From positions 1 to 62,425 of IMG/VR virus record IMGVR_UViG_3300000208_000001: a DNA stretch of 62,425 bases, one strand, 5' to 3'. The notes under the pieces are model-generated. The model was not told where the DNA came from, searched no databases, and saw only the letters and a list, made by a program, of their open reading frames with translations. A program made the position numbers and the translations under genes. Position 1 is the stretch's first letter. Every line of letters begins with the position of its first letter. Origin of the DNA: a virus. Lineage: Duplodnaviria > Caudoviricetes. This document shows positions 6,110-62,425 of this stretch, one piece after another.

Positions 6110-8719
6110 ATGCCAAGCGTCAAGCTCGACAAGCCCATCCCGATCAACCCGGCTAAGAACATCGGCAGGCCGCCGAAGCCTTCTACGATCATCCGCTATT
6201 ACCAGGCGAACCCCGACAAGTGGCTGGAGAACGCCTTCGGCGTGCAGCTTTGGGAGAAACAGCGCGAGATTCTGCACGACGTATGGAACAACCGTTACGT
6301 GGCGGTGCGGTCATGCTATGCAAGCGGGAAATGCCTAGCCGAAGACGAACTGGTCATGCTGTTGGACGGAACCATGGTCGAGGCTCGCGATCTGGTTGGC
6401 AGGCAATTCGACGTTTTAGCTTTCGACGAGAGGACCAAATCTCTGGTGCCGGCGAGAGCGTTTGCCACGGACAATGGTCACGAGGACGTGTGGAGGGTAA
6501 CGACGGCAAGCGGTCGTTCCGTAGTTAGAACGGGCAACCACCCGTTCTACGCAGTTCCTTATCGCAAGAACTCATATATCAGCGGAACTCGAAGTGAACC
6601 CTGCGGCGAACCTGTTTGGGTGAAGGTCAACGATTTGAAAAAGAACCACGCGATTCTGGCTCCCAAATCTCTTCCGGTTCTTGCCGTGGACCGGCAACCC
6701 GAAGATCACGTCAAGTTGGCTGCTTATCTTCTCGGCGACGGCGGTTTGACCACACCAACCATGACGTTTACACAGATGCCAGGGCCCGTCCTGGATGAGT
6801 TCTTGGAGATCGTCAAACGTTTGGGTTGTGAGACCATCCCCGTCACAAGCAATGAGCTGGGGCTGCGCATCGCGGGACGGAAAAAGGAGAATGGGGAACG
6901 ATACGCAGCACAGCATCATACGAACTGGATCTTGAATCTGGCACGCGAATGGGGCATTTGGGGGAAACGAGCCAACGAGAAGCGGTTCCCGTCTTGGGTT
7001 TGGAGACTGCCAGACGACCAAATGGCGTTGTTTTTGAATCGGTTGTTCGCCTGCGACGGATGGGCGTATGCGAGAGAAAGAGACCTCTCTAGGCCCAAGA
7101 CAGGCCACTTCACACAGATTGGGATCGCTTTGGCGTCGAAGGGAATGATCCAAGACATTGCTTGGGCGATGTGGCGGCTAGGCATTTGGGGTGTTGTTCG
7201 GCATCGCAAAGTGGCTGGCAAGTACGATGCTTGGGAGTGGTCCTGCAATCGGGCGGAGGACATCGTACGTTTCGCGGAGGTTGTTAGCATCTTCGGCAAG
7301 GAGCAAGCTCTTGAACACTGTGTTTGCGCTGCGACAAAGAAGAAGCAGAGAACCCGGTGGCTCGATCATCACGCTCCTGATGGCTTCGTTTGGGACCCGG
7401 TTAAGAAGGTCGAATTTGTAGGCAAGCGCCGGACTGTGTGCATCACGGTGCCGGGTTACGAAACGTTTGTGACCATGTTGGTTGAACACAACAGTTTCCT
7501 CGCTGCAAGCGCGGCGATGGCGTGGTCGCACCTCTTCAAAGACAGCATCGTTCTGACGACGGCCCGCTCGTTCCGGCAGGTTCGGGCCAACGTCTGGCAG
7601 GTGATCCATCAGCTCAAAGAACAGGCGCGCATCCCATTGGGTTCGGAGTTCTTGCAAACAGAGATTCGTCTTGGACCGGGATGGTACGCTCTTGGCTTTG
7701 CGACGGACGACCCTGGCACGATCCAGGGTATTCACGCGAAGTCGGGCCGTATCCTCATCATCGTGGACGAGTCGGCTGAGGTGGACGCCGCGATTCACGA
7801 ACGCCTGCTTGCGCTCATGACATCGGAGCACGCCCACATCCTGCATATCGGGAACCCCCTGGAGGTCGGCACCGTCTTCCACAGCTACTTCTCCGACCCC
7901 AAGTACGTGACGCATCGGATCAGCGCGTTCGATACGCCGAACGTCAAAGAGGGCCGGGAAGTCATCCCTGGTCTCGTCTCCAAGCAGTGGGTGGAGGAAC
8001 GCCGCCAGGAATGGGGCGAGGACAGCCCGCTTTGGTACTCGCAGGTGTTGGGCGAGTTCCCGCCGACCGGGAACGACACGCTCATTCCGCTCTCTTGGGT
8101 GCGGGCGGCGCAGGAGCGGTGGCATGACATGGCTCCAAGTGGCCGGGAAGTGGCGGGCGTGGACATTTCGAGGTACGGAAACGCCGAGAGTGTTTGCTGC
8201 ATCATTTCGGGCCGCTTCGTGCATCCGCTCAAAACATGGTCGCAGGCGTCCACGTCGGAGTCTGTCGGTTACATCCGCACCTACGCCGCGGGAGCGAAGA
8301 TCATCCGCATTGACGACATTGGCGTAGGCGGAGGCGTGGTGGACCAGGCGCGCCAGGAAGGCTTGCCGGTGGTCGGCGTCAACGTTCAGGTGAAGTCGTC
8401 GAAGCCCGATAAGTTCTTCAACCTGCGGTCGGAGCTGTACTGGAACCTGCGGGAGTTGCTAAACCCCGAGAATCCGAATGCGCTGGCGCTGCCGCCGGAC
8501 GATAAGTTGGCGGCGCAGTTGAGTTCGATCCGGTACAAAATTATCGACAGCGGCGGTCGCATCCAGGTTGAATCCAAGGATCAAATGAGGAGCCGCGGTT
8601 TGAAAAGTCCCGACCGCGCGGATGCCTTGTGTCTTGCGGCGGCAGGGACGATAGCAGGAGGTTTGACAGTCGCGCCGGTGATGATTGGTGTCGGGAGTTC
8701 CTATTGGAGCCAACTTTGA
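6110..8719 (+). CDS. terL: Terminase large subunit containing an intein
   Basis: Walker A SCYASGK/S, Walker B IIVDES, GNP coupling motif, nuclease domain AGVDIS...SPDRADA. Confidence 0.95.
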   Translation: MPSVKLDKPIPINPAKNIGRPPKPSTIIRYYQANPDKWLENAFGVQLWEKQREILHDVWNNRYVAVRSCYASGKCLAEDELVMLLDGTMVEARDLVGRQFDVLAFDERTKSLVPARAFATDNGHEDVWRVTTASGRSVVRTGNHPFYAVPYRKNSYISGTRSEPCGEPVWVKVNDLKKNHAILAPKSLPVLAVDRQPEDHVKLAAYLLGDGGLTTPTMTFTQMPGPVLDEFLEIVKRLGCETIPVTSNELGLRIAGRKKENGERYAAQHHTNWILNLAREWGIWGKRANEKRFPSWVWRLPDDQMALFLNRLFACDGWAYARERDLSRPKTGHFTQIGIALASKGMIQDIAWAMWRLGIWGVVRHRKVAGKYDAWEWSCNRAEDIVRFAEVVSIFGKEQALEHCVCAATKKKQRTRWLDHHAPDGFVWDPVKKVEFVGKRRTVCITVPGYETFVTMLVEHNSFLAASAAMAWSHLFKDSIVLTTARSFRQVRANVWQVIHQLKEQARIPLGSEFLQTEIRLGPGWYALGFATDDPGTIQGIHAKSGRILIIVDESAEVDAAIHERLLALMTSEHAHILHIGNPLEVGTVFHSYFSDPKYVTHRISAFDTPNVKEGREVIPGLVSKQWVEERRQEWGEDSPLWYSQVLGEFPPTGNDTLIPLSWVRAAQERWHDMAPSGREVAGVDISRYGNAESVCCIISGRFVHPLKTWSQASTSESVGYIRTYAAGAKIIRIDDIGVGGGVVDQARQEGLPVVGVNVQVKSSKPDKFFNLRSELYWNLRELLNPENPNALALPPDDKLAAQLSSIRYKIIDSGGRIQVESKDQMRSRGLKSPDRADALCLAAAGTIAGGLTVAPVMIGVGSSYWSQL
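6332..7492 (+). mobile_element. 387-aa intein with LAGLIDADG homing endonuclease
   Basis: Begins CLAEDELV, block B TGNHPF, LAGLIDADG-like AYLLGDG and NRLFACDG, ends VEHN/S. Confidence 0.92.
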
Positions 8720-35887: not shown

Positions 35888-37387
35888 TTATACGTTTATC
35901 CTCGCCCATCGTGCGGGCAGTCGGCTCGTCGCAGGCGGCAGATGCGGGTCGGTCCAATGGATCGCCACGTCCTCACCCGCCACCACGAGACGCTTCGCGA
36001 GGATGCGGATTCCCTCCCGCTTCTCCTCGACGGTCATCGCGTTCCAGTTGGACGCCACATTCCGCATCAGCGCCCGCGTGACCTCCGGCGAGGTGGCGCG
36101 GGCGTCCTCTTCGGCTTGCTCCAGGCGACGCATCTCGGCCTCTATCTGCTGTCTCTCGCGGTTAAGTTGGGCTAAACGTGGCCTGATGGTGGCGGCAAGT
36201 TCGCCCTCCTCCAGCGCCGTCACGAGGTTGTCGATGCGCCGCAGGATGCTCGACCTCTGCCCTTCGAGCCGTGCGAGGGTGTCTGCTGCGGACGGCCGCG
36301 CCTTCGCGTGGGCTGCGCGCGCCTTCTCTGCGGCCGTCCAGAATGATGGCGTGTCCACGACGCGTTGGAGTTGGGCGAGAAACACAAACTCTAGCGCCTC
36401 ATGTCGTACCGGACGCTGATCGCAGCGATGGTCGACGTGGCGACGGTCGCAACGGTAGTACATGCGATACGGTTCATTGGGGCCGCCGCCTCCCGATCCG
36501 GCGAGGCGCATGGCGTTCTCGCACCGGCCGCATACCACGAGGCGCGAGAACAGGTGCCCGCTGCGGTTCCGGGGGCCAGTCCCCAGGGTGTTGCGCTTTC
36601 GAACCTCTACAGCCCTCCAGAACGCCTCCTCGTCAATGATCGCCTCGTGGTCCCCGGGCGCGATGATCCAGTCGTCCATCTTCTCGACGGAGATGTGATT
36701 GCTGCCCCGACGTTTCGTATAGGCGATTTTGCCGGTGTAGGTGGGATTGAGGAGGATGCGCCGCACCCGGTTCGCGGACATCCCCACTCTGCGGGCAATC
36801 GCAACGTCGCCGTATTGCCCGGTGAGGTAGAGCCGAAATATCTCCCGTACCACATCGGCCTCCTCGGGCACGACCACGAGGCGGGCGTTGGCACGTTCTC
36901 CGACTTTGCGATAACCGAACGGCGGCTCCCATCCGAGGTAGCGCCCGCCCGCCGCGAGGCGCCTCTTGCCTTCGGTCGACCGTTCGGCGATCAACTCTCG
37001 CTCGAAATTCGCAAAGTCAATGAGGATGTTGCGGAGGAGCCGCCCGGTGGGAGACGACGTGTCGATGTTCTGAGTCACACTTACGATAGCGACGCCCTTC
37101 GACTCCAACTCGTCGGCCAGCTCGTGGAAGTCCCGCACCGAGCGCGTGAGGCGGTCGAGTTTGTAGACTAGGACGGCCTGGAAACGGCCCCGCTTCGCAT
37201 CCTCCATCATGCGCTGAAACGCAGGGCGGTCGGTGGTGCTACCCGAGAGTCCTGCGTCTTCGTAGCGTTCGACGACCTCCCAGCCTTGAGAAGCGGCATA
37301 GGCGCGCAGGCGCTCCTCCTGAAGTTGGAGGGAGATGCCATCTACTTGCACGGAGGATGAGACGCGAAGGTAGATGCAGACGTTCAT
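35888..37387 (-). CDS. Large serine integrase
   Basis: YLRVSS, EDAGLSG, KLDRLTRS, PPFGY, NPTYTG, HEAII, Zn-ribbon and coiled coil. Confidence 0.95.
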   Translation of the reverse strand: MNVCIYLRVSSSVQVDGISLQLQEERLRAYAASQGWEVVERYEDAGLSGSTTDRPAFQRMMEDAKRGRFQAVLVYKLDRLTRSVRDFHELADELESKGVAIVSVTQNIDTSSPTGRLLRNILIDFANFERELIAERSTEGKRRLAAGGRYLGWEPPFGYRKVGERANARLVVVPEEADVVREIFRLYLTGQYGDVAIARRVGMSANRVRRILLNPTYTGKIAYTKRRGSNHISVEKMDDWIIAPGDHEAIIDEEAFWRAVEVRKRNTLGTGPRNRSGHLFSRLVVCGRCENAMRLAGSGGGGPNEPYRMYYRCDRRHVDHRCDQRPVRHEALEFVFLAQLQRVVDTPSFWTAAEKARAAHAKARPSAADTLARLEGQRSSILRRIDNLVTALEEGELAATIRPRLAQLNRERQQIEAEMRRLEQAEEDARATSPEVTRALMRNVASNWNAMTVEEKREGIRILAKRLVVAGEDVAIHWTDPHLPPATSRLPARWARINV

Positions 37388-56757: not shown

Positions 56758-56787
56758 AGAGGCGGACGCGGTAGTCCCGCCTCTCTA
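56755..56787. terminator. Hairpin between convergent transcription units
   Basis: TAGAGAGGCGG/CCGCCTCTCTA. Confidence 0.55.
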
Positions 56788-57744
56788 TACCTTGACCTTG
56801 ATTGCCTCCGCCACGTTGTTTTCGCGCCGGTCCACAATGTGGGCATATCGACTCGTCGTCCGCGGGTTTCTATGTCCAAGCAACTCCTGCACAGCCCGCA
56901 GGTCCCGAGTCGCCGCATAGGCCGCCGTCGCCGCGCTGTGTCGCAAAGCGTGCCCACTCAGCCTGGGCCGCTTCAGCCCCGCCTTCTCCAAGTACCCATC
57001 CACCACCAACCGAATTCCCCGTCTTCCCATGCGCTTCCCTCCGGCCCGGTTCCCCACGGCGACGAAGAGCGGCGTCCCCATGTCGTCCGGCACGACGCGG
57101 CCACGCCTGGCGATGTACTCGTCGAACAGGGCGCGCACGTCCTTACGGAGTTGGATCACCGTATCGTGATACTTCCCATGTACGAGCATCGAGCCATCGG
57201 GCCGTATGTCCTCGACGCTGGCTCTATGTGCTTCGATTTGCCGGCGCGCTTGCAAGCCCAAGAAGGCGAGGAGGGCTAGGTCGCGAAGCGACGCCTCCTT
57301 CCCGTCCCGCGGCACGGCGGCGAGGAGCCGAGCGAGTTCCTCCTCCGAGAGATAGGGGATGTCGTCCTCGGCGGATCGGTCCCGCGGCGGCTTCACGCCC
57401 GCGGCCGGGTTGTCGGTGCGGAGTCCCCGGTCGCGCGCCGCCTCGTAGAACCTGCGTATCACCGTCAGCTTGTGGGCGATGGTGCCGGGCTCGTAGTCCT
57501 GTTCGACGAGGTACTGCCGATATCTCTTGATGTCGTCCTCCGTCGCCCGCGCCGGCTCGACTCCCGCTTCCCGGCACCAGTCGACGTACTGTTCCACCTG
57601 AGAGAAGTAGCCGCGCACGGTATCCTCCGACGCATCGCCGTTGGCTACATCGAGATGGACGAAGACGGCGAAGGCGTCGAGCAGACTGTCGGTGGAAACC
57701 GCCGCTTCTTCGGGTTTTGCAAGTCCGAATAGTCTTGAAGGCAT
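56785..57744 (-). CDS. Tyrosine recombinase (XerC/D-like)
   Basis: SAM-like N-domain, HGK, GHALRHS, VQELLGH..PRTTSRY. Confidence 0.92.
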   Translation of the reverse strand: MPSRLFGLAKPEEAAVSTDSLLDAFAVFVHLDVANGDASEDTVRGYFSQVEQYVDWCREAGVEPARATEDDIKRYRQYLVEQDYEPGTIAHKLTVIRRFYEAARDRGLRTDNPAAGVKPPRDRSAEDDIPYLSEEELARLLAAVPRDGKEASLRDLALLAFLGLQARRQIEAHRASVEDIRPDGSMLVHGKYHDTVIQLRKDVRALFDEYIARRGRVVPDDMGTPLFVAVGNRAGGKRMGRRGIRLVVDGYLEKAGLKRPRLSGHALRHSAATAAYAATRDLRAVQELLGHRNPRTTSRYAHIVDRRENNVAEAIKVKV

Positions 57745-58761: not shown

Positions 58762-59800
58762 GGCGTTCCTCCTTTCTCGGTTTCACGCTTCGGACGGTCG
58801 GCGCGATGTCATCCAGGTCGCCGACGTTTACCGGGATCGGCGGGAGCCAGTGGAGCACGACGCGGCGTTTCGCCGGTTCGCTCCTCGGCCCCGTCCAATA
58901 GGCGTGCCAATGGGCGCATCGGATATGCGGTCTTGGCGATCTGCGGTCCGTCGTCTCGCCTTCGTCGGACGAACGCCGCCGTTCGTTCTCGGCCCGTCGC
59001 AGCGCCGCCCCAATGCGAAAGCCTGTCTGCCACACCGTGGGCTGATCAGGCGGGAAGATGCGCGGGCCGCGCTTCGTCCGCACAGGACGAGGGTATGTGG
59101 GGCGGCGGTCGCCGATGTACTCGGCCGCCGTCGAACATAGATAGAGCACGAGCGAGACGAGTGGAGTGACATAGGGCACCATTTGGCCAGGGGCGGTGAA
59201 CGCCTCCGGCGGAATCTCCATCCCCGCGCGCTCGGCCTGCCTGTTTGCCTCCTCCGCCATCGCCGCGAGCGATGCGGCGACATCGCCCGACATGTGGAGG
59301 GGGAGCGGTAGAAGGTCATCGAGGTCATCGCCGAAGTCGAGCAGGAAGCGCAGCTCGATCCGCCTGTCGTTCGCATCATGTTCGAGATGGGCGAAGAAGC
59401 CATGTAATGGGTCTGCCCCGAACATGTATCCCGGCGTCTCGATGTAAACGCACCACTCCGGCAGGCGCAGGATAATGTCCACTGGCAGGTCGCCTTCAAC
59501 GGGCGTTCCGCGCAATGCACGGTATAGGTCTGGGTCGAAGCGGTAGATTCCCTGGGTGACACGCCACGCCGCCAGTGCCGCCACTCGGGCGATGTCCTCA
59601 ATTTCGGGATCAAGCGGCGAAAGCATCCGCCCCCGGCTCACGATGGCATATGCGCCAGCCGCAGGAAGGAAACACCACTCGGGCCAGTCCGGGAGTCTCG
59701 TGCCCCGGTCGGCGCGCATCTCGTCGACCAGGCGCCATGCGTCCGGGTAGCGGCGCGACATGGCAATAAGGTGGCGCTTGGGACGGGGGATGTCAGACAC
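58745..59800 (-). CDS. acrVA2: AcrVA2/FinQ-family anti-CRISPR-like protein
   Basis: AWRVTQGIY, LPEWCVY, LYLC, RPHIRCAHWHAYWTG and WLPPIPVN match AcrVA2 family blocks as recalled. Confidence 0.75.
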   Translation of the reverse strand: MSDIPRPKRHLIAMSRRYPDAWRLVDEMRADRGTRLPDWPEWCFLPAAGAYAIVSRGRMLSPLDPEIEDIARVAALAAWRVTQGIYRFDPDLYRALRGTPVEGDLPVDIILRLPEWCVYIETPGYMFGADPLHGFFAHLEHDANDRRIELRFLLDFGDDLDDLLPLPLHMSGDVAASLAAMAEEANRQAERAGMEIPPEAFTAPGQMVPYVTPLVSLVLYLCSTAAEYIGDRRPTYPRPVRTKRGPRIFPPDQPTVWQTGFRIGAALRRAENERRRSSDEGETTDRRSPRPHIRCAHWHAYWTGPRSEPAKRRVVLHWLPPIPVNVGDLDDIAPTVRSVKPRKEERREPLA

Positions 59801-59839
59801 GGGATCACTCCTTCCGTGCCGATCATGCCGAACACAATG

Positions 59840-59890
59840 TCAGTTTTCGTCGGGCATCATCACCGTGATGACGGGCTCTAGGTTGTCACC
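59840..59890 (-). pseudogene. 3' relic of a DUF6573-like gene
   Basis: GDNLEPVITVMMPDEN* with no upstream gene body. Confidence 0.45.
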
Positions 59891-59968
59891 GGTCGATGTG
59901 TCGCGGAGGGTCCGCGGCGTGGTACAATAGCCGAGGACCCTCCGGGTTTCGCAGGCCGTCTCCTCCCC

Positions 59969-60463
59969 TCATGCCGTGAAGCGCCTCACAGCGACGATAC
60001 GCCCCGCGTCGTCGCGGATCGCAGACTCCGGCCCGGTGTCAGGAGCCACCACGTCTACGCGGCCTGAGCCGCGTAGAGCCGCAAGAACGAGCGCGGACAC
60101 GATGTACACGGTATCGCGTTCTGGATCGGGTAACCCCTCGACAGCCCCATACGTCTGTCGGACAGTGGGGACTCCGTGGGGCGTGTCAACGGGTTCTGTA
60201 ACAGTCGTCACCCGAGCGACAGTACCAGACGGCGGCACGGTGAGCTCATAGCCGTCGAATCGAATCGTCACCGCGTGGGGCGTCAGGTTGATGAAGCGGG
60301 TGTACCACCGTGTAATGTGGCTCGCGCCGTCGTCAAACGCCCCCAAACCGCCCTCGTACTCGGCCAGCGGACCGGCGTAGACAACCACCGGCCCGTGATC
60401 CTCGCCATGAGGACCATAAGCGTGGGCCTCGCGAGTCACAACACCATAGCCTTCCAGTTTCAT
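59969..60463 (-). CDS. Conserved phage hypothetical protein
   Basis: INLTPH...PPSGTVARV...GLP...YIVS motif; AGGAGG RBS. Confidence 0.7.
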   Translation of the reverse strand: MKLEGYGVVTREAHAYGPHGEDHGPVVVYAGPLAEYEGGLGAFDDGASHITRWYTRFINLTPHAVTIRFDGYELTVPPSGTVARVTTVTEPVDTPHGVPTVRQTYGAVEGLPDPERDTVYIVSALVLAALRGSGRVDVVAPDTGPESAIRDDAGRIVAVRRFTA

Positions 60464-60507
60464 CGCGCGCACCTCCTGTTGTGTTTGCGCCGCTCTTCGT
60501 CGGTGGC

Positions 60508-61059
60508 TCAGACCTCCACGGGGAGGTCCGGGTCCACCGGCTCGGACTCGGTGGGACGATGATCCTCCGGCCATGAGAACACTGGCCGCCCGTTCTCATC
60601 CCACTCCATGACCACTGGCACCAACCAGGCCGCGTACAAGAGCGGCGATTCCGGCCACTCGGAGCCGATCAAGCCGTAGTCGCGGGCGCACCGCAGGATG
60701 CCGCGCAATAGCGGCAGCGTAGAAGGCACCGGTTCGCACACCCAGTCCGCCCAGGGGCCATCCCAGCCTAGCAGGCTCCCCTCGAACGGACGACCATCGC
60801 GTCCGATGGCCTCCGTGGCTTGCCCCACTGCCTCTTCGGACAGTCCCACAAGCAGGATCTTGCGGTAGTTGGCGGCGACGATGACGCCTTCCGGCGCGAT
60901 CGGCGCGATCTGCTCATATGCCACCCCGCGCCGGGAGGCGTAAGGTGAGCACTGCCGGGACAGCGTCACCTTCACATACCCGTTTGCCAGCACCAAGTCG
61001 GTGCTGGAATTAAGACTTTCCAATGCCCCCTGCAAGTATCGAAAATCCACTTCGCGCAC
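60508..61059 (-). CDS. Hypothetical protein
   Basis: GGAGGGG RBS and GTG start. Confidence 0.55.
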   Translation of the reverse strand: MREVDFRYLQGALESLNSSTDLVLANGYVKVTLSRQCSPYASRRGVAYEQIAPIAPEGVIVAANYRKILLVGLSEEAVGQATEAIGRDGRPFEGSLLGWDGPWADWVCEPVPSTLPLLRGILRCARDYGLIGSEWPESPLLYAAWLVPVVMEWDENGRPVFSWPEDHRPTESEPVDPDLPVEV

Positions 61060-61164
61060 TGACGTCCCCTCCCTGTGGATGTTGTGCCGCTCTTCGCCAC
61101 GCCTGTCGGCGTGCCCACCCCGCGCCACGTGGAGGCGGCGGCTGTGCGGGGCATAACGCGGGGA

Positions 61165-61527
61165 TCACTCCCCGCAGGTATGACCGAACCGCTCCCGCAG
61201 GAACTCTGCGACGGCCCGCGGCGTCCACTCGGACGGATCGGAAGCGCCAGGGCCAATAGCGCGCTCCAGGTCGTCGGCAACCATCTCGAACCGGGCGCCA
61301 CAGTAGGCGCACCACAGCGGGCGGCGCACCATGTGCCACCCGTGGCGGATCACGGCTTCAGCCATTTCGTCCAACTCCTCCTGCGTCAGTGAGCACTCAC
61401 CGAACATCGCCTCGATGTTCTCGACCGTGAAATATGCGCGCACCTGCGCTTCCGACTGGAACAGATCGCCCGCATCGAAATTGGTGGCCTCGTGAATCCG
61501 CTCCCGCGTCCATGCCATGTGTGTCAT
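61165..61527 (-). CDS. Small acidic hypothetical protein
   Basis: GAGGAGG RBS. Confidence 0.65.
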   Translation of the reverse strand: MTHMAWTRERIHEATNFDAGDLFQSEAQVRAYFTVENIEAMFGECSLTQEELDEMAEAVIRHGWHMVRRPLWCAYCGARFEMVADDLERAIGPGASDPSEWTPRAVAEFLRERFGHTCGE

Positions 61528-61566
61528 CCTCCTCTGCCGCTCCCGGCGGCGTGGTGTGTGCGGTCT

Positions 61567-61626
61567 CCCGCGACCCTGGCGATGCCAGGGTTTCGGCCGC
61601 GGACCAGGCGGCCATCGTCAGGCGGG
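61567..61626 (-). ncRNA. Type I hammerhead ribozyme
   Basis: Minus strand CCCGC-CUGACGA-U-GGCCGC(CUGGUCC)GCGGCC-GAAAC-CCUGGC(AUC)GCCAGG-GUC^GCGGG: complete core and three fully paired stems. Confidence 0.9.
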
Positions 61627-61830
61627 CTGCAGGTCGATCAAATGCGCTACCTGCTCGATCCTGCACAGGTAGCGCCCGCACCTCCGGCCCTTGTTGGGGC
61701 CGGCAACTTCGACCACGTTCGTAACCGGCGCCCAATACACGTCGCCGTTCGGGTAGGCGAAAACCTCCATCCTGCCCCCTTCGAGACTCTCGCTGTACCC
61801 GAGGTGACCCAGGGACTTTTGGGTGTGCAT
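61618..61830 (-). CDS. 70-aa hypothetical protein
   Basis: AGGAGG RBS; its stop codon is the UGA of the ribozyme core. Confidence 0.65.
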   Translation of the reverse strand: MHTQKSLGHLGYSESLEGGRMEVFAYPNGDVYWAPVTNVVEVAGPNKGRRCGRYLCRIEQVAHLIDLQPA

Positions 61831-61964
61831 GTTGGCATCCTCCTTTTCGTGTACCTGTATTCGGGCTGCGCCCTTGAGCGTAGCGGGGGAGGGGATGGAC
61901 CTCCCCCGGCCCAGACCTTCCCAGGGCTGTACCTAGCGGACGTATTCGAGGACCGGCGGACTCG

Positions 61965-62210
61965 TCAGGCGGGGGCGGGCACGGCGGGTCCGACGAGGTA
62001 CCATCCGTGCCGGGTCTCGGCGACCATCGCGGTGTCGATCCATGCCAGAGCGTGCATCGCCCGGATCGCCGCCGTCAGTATGGCATCATCCTCCGCAGTG
62101 TGTCGATGCCGCCGCCCGAGGATGTGCTCGACATGCGCCCAGGTGAGCTGCACTGCCTCATGCTCGATCCCTCGATGGTCTGTGTACGTCGTCGTGAGCA
62201 GGTCGCTCAT
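61965..62210 (-). CDS. 81-aa hypothetical protein
   Basis: GAGGAGG RBS. Confidence 0.65.
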   Translation of the reverse strand: MSDLLTTTYTDHRGIEHEAVQLTWAHVEHILGRRHRHTAEDDAILTAAIRAMHALAWIDTAMVAETRHGWYLVGPAVPAPA

Positions 62211-62226
62211 CGTGTATCCTCCTCTC

Positions 62227-62280
62227 GGGTTTCGGCGGCCTTACCGCCATCATCAGCAGGGCTGTAGCTCCCTGGACCCC
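62227..62280 (-). ncRNA. Type III hammerhead ribozyme
   Basis: Minus strand GGGGUC^CAGGG(AGCUACAG)CCCUG-CUGAUGA-U-GGCGG(UAAGG)CCGCC-GAAACCC. Confidence 0.85.
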
Positions 62281-62367
62281 TAGCGCCTACTCTCTGACTC
62301 GGCCCGTCCACCGGCTCCCGCTCCCGCTCACATCGGTCTCCATGCGATCTCCGCCCGGTGCGCTCCG

Positions 62368-62425
62368 CCAACCGTACCCATAGGCGCTGGCTTCTATCGG
62401 CTCCCCCCGCTCCCCCCAGTGGGGA
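62368..62425. repeat. Right copy of 58-bp terminal direct repeat
   Basis: Matches 1-58 with 2 mismatches; suggests a circular or circularly permuted complete genome. Confidence 0.95.

Follow-up and report, generated by a model that had tools for sequence, protein, structure and literature searches.

Bioinformatic analysis of a 62,425-base IMG/VR virus record (IMGVR_UViG_3300000208_000001), linear, estimated to be 78% complete and referred to here, over its whole length, as the window, identified near its right end an RNA element that we consider, with good confidence, to be a genuine and probably active type I hammerhead ribozyme of the clustered phage class (hammerhead 1), situated in a leftward operon of small genes whose transcript it would cut into separate messages. 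On the evidence of its sequence and of its relatives, hammerhead 1 is a member of the class of clustered phage and prophage hammerheads described by Perreault et al. (2011, PLoS Comput Biol, PMC3088659), in which ribozymes flanking single genes cleave in vitro and in E. coli. From this sequence we infer catalytic activity, co-transcriptional processing of the operon RNA and the consequences of that processing.

Judging from its gene content, the window encodes a temperate tailed phage: a portal of Mu type, a capsid protein, a DnaB-type helicase-primase, two recombinases and a 1,638-aa ORF of tape-measure size are present. In tblastn searches, the portal showed ~41% identity to Arthrobacter phages, which is too distant for the naming of a host. 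Leftward transcription extends across the final 5 kb of the window, and the small-gene operon lies at the right end of the phage genome. A BLAST search against deposited phages returned no match for the 901-nt region or for the 74-nt ribozyme, and a scan of positions 59500-62425 for promoters and terminators found no minus-strand terminator and a single weak promoter-like site, within the 81-aa gene. Contigs from RNA runs X3 and X12 lie over 61617-61854 and 62011-62201, contigs that show neither transcript ends nor strand.

As the original prediction had proposed, a type I hammerhead occupies positions 61626-61567 of the minus strand, and all of its parts are present, including the core CUGACGA, the GAAA, the UC cleavage site and three helices (Table 1). 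The sequence carries every core residue required of a hammerhead (C3 U4 G5 A6 N7 G8 A9, G12 A13 A14, and an H17 that is not G), with the G10.1-C11.1 pair (G61613-C61595) closing helix II and the A15.1-U16.1 pair formed by A61591 and U61573, and the predicted cut falls between 61572 and 61571. The minimum free energy (MFE) structure of the 60-nt sequence is the exact three-way junction (-33.8 kcal/mol, z = -2.41), and 2 of 200 shuffled sequences were equally good. In the MFE fold of a 181-nt context, which ignores the pseudoknot described below, helices II and III are kept and the 5-bp helix I is lost, its 3' strand being able to form a small hairpin with the tail instead; helix I is thus likely to need the pseudoknot for its folding and to be affected by whatever occupies the upstream strand. 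A type III reading of the same sequence was rejected, as it leaves helices I and III of just 3 bp and is weaker than the type I reading. It should be noted that, once cleaved, the downstream RNA would begin with GCGG GAGA CCGC (61560-61571, minus), 12 nt able to fold into a hairpin of 4 bp and a GNRA-type loop; this hairpin is present in the 181-nt MFE fold and was not seen in the other tails of the family.

Table 1. Position and strand of the ribozyme parts and small genes at the right end of the window.
Feature	Position	Strand	Evidence or remarks
Hammerhead 1, type I, complete	61561-61626	minus	sequence, MFE fold, descriptor, model R2, covariation
Helix I, 5' strand CCCGC	61626-61622	minus	
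Core C3-A9, CUGACGA	61621-61615	minus	
Shared UGA (core U4-G5-A6 and stop codon)	61618-61620	minus	
Extra U after A9	61614	minus	
Helix II, 6 bp	61613-61608 with 61600-61595	minus	
Loop II, 7 nt	61607-61601	minus	
G12 A13 A14	61594-61592	minus	
Helix III, 8 bp	61591-61584 with 61580-61573	minus	first pair A15.1-U16.1
C17	61572	minus	
Helix I, 3' strand GCGGG	61571-61567	minus	
Pseudoknot tail	61565-61561	minus	pairs with loop II (predicted)
120-aa gene, downstream	61165-61527	minus	codon GC 0.65/0.48/0.79
70-aa gene, single LGFP-repeat-like unit	61618-61830	minus	codon GC, Shine-Dalgarno, homologues
Relic, 5' half of a type I hammerhead	61951-61973	minus	12-mer identical to hammerhead 1, alignment; R1 7.5 bits
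81-aa gene between the ribozymes	61965-62210	minus	codon GC 0.71/0.50/0.79; ends CCC GCC TGA
Hammerhead 2, type III	62227-62279	minus	descriptor, MFE, X1 variants, type III relatives
Hammerhead 2, helix III GGGU/ACCC, 4 bp		minus	
Hammerhead 2, C17	62275	minus	predicted cut between 62275 and 62274
Hammerhead 2, helix I, 5-bp hairpin	62274-62270 with 62261-62257	minus	
Hammerhead 2, core CUGAUGA	62256-62250	minus	extra U at 62249
Hammerhead 2, helix II, 5-6 bp	62248-62244 with 62238-62234	minus	
Hammerhead 2, GAAA	62233-62230	minus	

A U inserted between A9 and G10.1 occurs naturally and is tolerated (PMC3705267, after De la Pena and Flores, 2001). The plus-strand hammerhead of CChMVd likewise has one extra residue at this place (De la Pena and Flores, 2001, PMC3705267), as do the hammerheads of Penelope-like elements (PMC4209133), and a U here raised trans-cleavage by the viroid ribozyme 3-4 fold (PMC3705267). 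Those ribozymes belong to a viroid or to retroelements, whereas phage genomes mix copies with and without the extra U, both kinds occurring together in the same genome.

Loop II of hammerhead 1 contains the sequence UGGUC (61606-61602), which is complementary to the tail GACCG that begins one base past helix I, giving a predicted pseudoknot of 5 bp. Since loop II pairs with this 3' tail, the element extends to 61561, beyond position 61567. The pairing recurs across the family: of 102 distinct loop/tail combinations, 58 can form at least 4 bp, whereas 500 permutations of the tails gave 28.2 on average (maximum 38); at least 5 bp are reached in 31 of the 102, against a mean of 11.4 (maximum 18) with permuted tails. 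Altogether 35 different pseudoknot duplexes were found, and loop and tail covary (for example, UGGCU/AGCCA, UGGUU/AACCA, UAGUU/AACUA, UGAUU/AAUCA, GGAUA/UAUCC, and UGAGC/GCUCG). The tertiary contact between helix I and helix II that characterizes hammerheads is thus found here as a covarying predicted pseudoknot. Perreault et al. (PMC3088659) showed that hammerheads of each of the three types have such pseudoknots and that rapid cleavage at 0.5 mM Mg2+ depends on them.

To estimate how often such an element would arise by chance, we used a strict descriptor that requires the core together with three helices, of no fewer than 4, 4, and 3 bp, applied to types I and III on both strands. It was satisfied twice in the window, at minus-strand sites within 700 nt of each other, against a mean of 0.01 in 200 dinucleotide shuffles, of which two held at least one site and none held two or more. 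A loose core pattern lacking the helices gave 6 matches against 8.5 expected, that is, no enrichment.

The family itself was retrieved with a pattern taken from the window that fixes the core and parts of helices II and III, which matched in 103 stretches of IMG/VR contigs. Within the stored viral loci, 98 of the 109 pattern matches are complete hammerheads (78 of type I and 20 of type III), which provides an independent check on the helices; many loci carry two to seven copies on one strand within a few kb, and a helix I of 4-6 bp is the rule. Across 45 aligned copies, 95.1% of the cells pair, against 73.1% after shuffling and at most 45.4% with slid partners, a percentage that is high partly by construction because the rows had been chosen with a pairing descriptor; the variety of pair types is free of this effect, with double-sided changes in 13 of the 16 pairs and an observed value reached by none of 500 shuffles. 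A covariance model built from 44 relatives with the window left out (R2) scored hammerhead 1 at 64.6 bits (E = 3.3e-18), and the second-ranking site of the window was the hammerhead 2 core, with 18.1 bits.

Rfam gave a different picture. No match reached the gathering score anywhere in the window, and a search of 61450-61750 at E<=10 returned no hammerhead and four weak matches to unrelated families, which we attribute to chance. When ten related loci were scanned with Rfam release 15 at the gathering score, none of the 33 type I copies found by the descriptor (in L005, L007, L010, L011, L033, L045, L046, L091, and L102) was reported, and only two type II copies were (in L027 and L091). Since the same models missed 33 of 33 type I relatives, their silence on hammerhead 1 says little. 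The Rfam hammerhead families, including RF02276 and RF00163 (which we take to be Hammerhead_1, type I), share with hammerhead 1 the ribozyme class and the core; compared with these models, the phage copies have an open helix I of 4-6 bp and a pseudoknot with the tail, and they frequently contain the additional U that follows A9. Because the Rfam models miss this abundant subclass of type I, with its short helix I and tail pseudoknot, phage annotation pipelines will overlook it as well.

It is very improbable that hammerhead 1 is an inactive look-alike or a decayed copy. A partial copy of this kind, the relic at 61973-61951, does lie 350 nt away, hammerhead-like RNAs that are inactive are on record (Perreault et al., PMC3088659, legend of Figure S7), and the helix I of hammerhead 1 has just the 5 bp that disappear in the longer fold; a helix this short is nevertheless normal in the family, all invariant core positions are intact, and so are the three helices and the pseudoknot, as expressed in the score against the family consensus.

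The original prediction had further noted that the UGA of the core doubles as the stop codon of a 70-aa ORF, and this proved correct: the UGA at 61620-61618 ends that ORF and at the same time provides U4-G5-A6 of the core. The 5' strand of helix I is likewise coding, as had been claimed, with the last two codons (CCC GCC) supplying this strand and C3. The 70-aa ORF is very probably a real gene, as suggested by its sequence properties. Its GC content by codon position (0.62/0.44/0.83) resembles that of the integrase (0.70/0.45/0.78) and also fits the tape-measure ORF, and this pattern is absent from the overlapping alternative frames; in addition, a Shine-Dalgarno sequence, AAGGAGGA, lies 7 nt upstream of its ATG. 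A word-based protein search with the 70-aa protein retrieved the query alone. When the search was made exhaustive, 26 library proteins matched with E<=0.001, among them homologues of 77, 80, 83, and 153 aa with 37-48% identity in the alignment. The match to the LGFP repeat is weak (E = 0.064), and the larger matches are multi-repeat LGFP-repeat proteins, the free-standing homologues having 77-83 aa. The conserved block of the protein ends near residue 56. Past this residue both the length and the sequence of the tail are variable, so that the two codons contributed by helix I cost the protein nothing, and because the cut lies 46 nt 3' of the stop, cleavage would spare the stop codon.

A locus search guided by the 70-aa gene gave one weak locus (L002), which has no hammerhead, and one guided by the downstream 120-aa gene found no locus. 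For this latter gene, an ATG at 61518 is better spaced to GAGGAGGA and would give a protein of 117 aa.

To place the overlap in context, we surveyed 126 type I copies, no two of them identical, for which 200 nt or more of upstream sequence was present. The upstream stop falls on the core UGA in 30 of them, inside helix I in 5, 0-2 nt before helix I in 40, 3-5 nt before it in 20, 6-10 nt before it in 6 and further away in 20; the remaining 5 have no upstream ORF of at least 40 aa. The stop thus lies inside the ribozyme or within 5 nt of helix I in 95 copies, and 65 have a stop of their own within helix I or 0-5 nt before it, besides those that use the core UGA. Clustering of the upstream 100 nt at 70% identity reduced the set to 103 independent contexts, of which 21 use the core UGA as stop, 22 have their own stop in frame with the core UGA, 39 have a stop in another frame, 17 have a distant stop and 4 have no ORF. 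Downstream, the median distance from the cut to the next start codon is 39 nt among the 97 of 122 copies with a recognisable start, compared with 44 nt in the window; the ribozyme thus occupies a gap of minimal size between two genes.

The core UGA shares its frame with 43 of the 82 nearby stops, the other two phases having 25 and 14 (binomial p = 3.9e-4), a count in which the lineages are not independent. Pure chance does not fully describe the reading phase of the nearby stops, and part of the in-frame excess arises because stops abut a 5-bp helix I (offset -8, 16 cases). The overlap is common, at about one context in five, and its frequency and the in-frame excess are small additions to what is known of the class. 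Since just 21 contexts use the core UGA, the overlap appears to be one interchangeable layout rather than a special device, and on this sequence evidence it is best explained as a by-product of tight gene-ribozyme-gene packing, in which genes that happen to be in frame with the invariant UGA would run two codons into helix I and stop there.

These counts also bear on the coupling of cleavage to translation that the original prediction suggested. In such a gated mechanism, a terminating ribosome would unfold helix I and the core, so that cutting would occur only or mainly on untranslated RNA or in gaps between ribosomes and the fate of the downstream message would be coupled to translation of the 70-aa gene. 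The geometry fits, as stop and core share the same three nucleotides and the final two codons form the 5' strand of helix I; the upstream gene looks real and has a strong Shine-Dalgarno; more than one third of nearby stops are in frame; and a second gene in the window ends on the CCC GCC UGA of a hammerhead relic. The idea is therefore physically reasonable, but it is not favoured, and we consider it decidedly unlikely. The overlap itself is not conserved, other upstream genes stopping a few nt earlier, and the phase excess can come from stops abutting helix I. Termination is presumably brief compared with ribozyme half-lives of tens of seconds, and occlusion would be partial. By virtue of the ribosome footprint, moreover, a ribosome terminating 0-5 nt before helix I would also reach into the ribozyme. 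Since 95 of the 126 copies have the upstream stop inside the ribozyme or no more than 5 nt from it, any coupling would be a property of the whole family and not of the coincidence between CUGA and stop. A kobs of >1.2 per min has been reported for a pseudoknotted phage-type hammerhead (PMC3088659).

The literature search for hammerheads together with stop codons and phages or ribosomes found no mention of gating and no paper on the overlap in DNA phages. The term "stop codon" has no occurrence in the main text of PMC3088659, the supplements of which may hold similar alignments, or in a 2019 review (PMC6765202). If the two functions are to be separated, a change of the UGA to UAA should keep termination yet destroy core G5, so that ribozyme and translation would be separable by one base.

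Hammerhead 1 is not alone in the operon. A second, type III ribozyme (hammerhead 2) lies upstream of the 81-aa gene, its end separated by 3 nt from the Shine-Dalgarno of this gene. Its MFE structure is a three-way junction, with a weak z score (-0.83), and several of the 20 type III relatives in the stored loci share its 4-bp helix III. Natural variation was found in DNA run X1, in which 69% of the sampled words are present and which may be the window's own source sample. One X1 variant has three compensatory changes in helix I of hammerhead 2 (62274/62257, 62273/62258, and 62272/62259), and a second has a different yet complementary helix II and lacks the extra U. Two complete hammerheads ~650 nt apart, together with a relic, thus flank the 81-aa and 70-aa genes, the arrangement that is characteristic of the clustered class. 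In searches of metagenome contigs, the 81-aa protein had, beyond its own contig, one 42%-identical relative (L107), with no hammerhead beside it.

The relic comprises a helix I 5' strand, CUGACGA, a helix II 5' strand and part of loop II, with the 3' half missing, and it overlaps the stop of the 81-aa gene, again as CCC GCC UGA. We do not count CUGACGAG at 61968-61961 as a third working ribozyme, since in the window it is followed by neither a helix II 3' strand nor a GAAA nor a helix III. As a further observation, positions 61915-61945, after the relic, resemble the 5' flank and loop I of hammerhead 2, with UACAGCCCUG in common.

In one X1 contig (depth 12.2), which lacks the 70-aa gene, 23 letters stand in place of 61576-61950; manual reading across the join shows the relic made whole again, as a type I hammerhead with a helix II of GUCCG/CGGAC, a GAAA and a 6-bp helix III, sharing helix I and tail with hammerhead 1. 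A second X1 contig joins 62227 to 61627. The relic and these variants indicate that two genes of this lineage end on a hammerhead UGA and that a cassette comes and goes at the ribozyme.

Such observations raise the question of whether the hammerheads are, in addition to sites of RNA processing, portable gene-end modules and recombination junctions, the ribozyme supplying the upstream gene with a stop and a processing site and offering homology for swaps of single-gene cassettes. Besides the two X1 contigs and the shared CCC GCC UGA ends of both small genes, this possibility, which we regard as unlikely, draws on the distribution of homology breakpoints in the stored IMG/VR loci (L003-L105): of 312 breakpoints, 63 are no more than 30 nt from a hammerhead, and random placement gives 14.6 +/- 3.7 (maximum 25 in 300 trials), although the loci are interrelated and the counts not independent. 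A breakpoint was likewise present at 24 of the 52 gene boundaries that have a hammerhead and at 103 of the 527 that do not (odds ratio 3.5, p = 6e-5), a comparison inflated by hammerhead gaps being about twice as wide as plain gaps and based on gene calls made by greedy longest-ORF tiling. Small early genes are, in any case, mosaic hot spots, and the X1 variants come from a manual reading of contig tables for a run that is perhaps the window's own source sample. The breakpoint enrichment at hammerheads is only suggestive.

An extended form of this idea adds to the processing site and the exchange homology that the module provides an in-frame or back-up stop and that termination near the core tunes the timing of the cut. 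The 43 in-frame stops, the two CCC GCC UGA gene ends and the X1 variant without the cassette would all follow from it, and we nonetheless judge it unlikely. If both the in-frame bias and the breakpoint enrichment hold, hammerheads would be repeated regulatory elements shaping phage mosaicism.

The most likely role of hammerhead 1 is the cutting of an early polycistronic RNA into separate messages. During transcription of the operon, the RNA would fold into the three-way junction, be locked by the 5-bp pseudoknot between loop II and the tail, and cut itself after C61572. The 5' product would contain the whole 70-aa gene with its stop and would end in the ribozyme body with a 2',3'-cyclic phosphate, and the 3' product would be the message for the 120-aa gene, with a leader some 44-53 nt long that begins with a 5'-OH at G61571. 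Hammerhead 2 would cut upstream of the 81-aa gene, its body staying on the 5' end, and both cuts together would release a two-gene RNA (81 aa and 70 aa) with a ribozyme body at each end. The separate pieces could then differ in stability and translation. The end chemistry (2',3'-cyclic phosphate and 5'-OH) and a resulting effect on stability would be expected from the behaviour of hammerheads and of RNA decay in bacteria.

A comparable layout is found in phage T7, where RNase III sites form structured RNA between the early genes and the polycistronic early transcript is cut there into single messages. The T7 sites need a host enzyme and leave different ends, whereas a hammerhead cuts itself, leaving a 2',3'-cyclic phosphate and a 5'-OH. 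These two ends would also suit joining into a circular RNA, and the released 81-aa/70-aa segment, flanked by two ribozymes on one strand, might have its ends joined by a ribozyme or by a host ligase of RtcB type. Although Perreault et al. raised this possibility, their own search for spliced or circular RNAs was negative (data not shown; PMC3088659), and the RNA runs, available here as contigs, held no back-joined contig; excision and circularisation are, in our view, extremely improbable.

The processing role favoured here is the one proposed for the clustered hammerheads of Perreault et al., the cutting of long phage transcripts into gene-length mRNAs. These resemble the window also in their canonical core, in types I and III lying side by side on one strand and flanking one or two variable small genes, and in a pseudoknot that links the regions of helices I and II; we see no essential difference between them and the window. 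The role of bacterial and phage hammerheads is still described as undefined in the 2019 review (PMC6765202), and a 2026 paper on RNA-virus ribozymes sets DNA-phage matches aside as known (PMC13725137). The window adds a well-supported new example, with a natural broken copy and compensatory variants, to a class whose biological role is open.

Two further features of this phage may be mentioned. It carries both a large serine recombinase (35888-37387, minus) and a tyrosine integrase (56785-57744, minus). In addition, an 869-aa ORF adjoining the portal gene (6110-8719, plus) has weak matches to intein-splicing and LAGLIDADG domains and possibly encodes an intein-bearing large protein.
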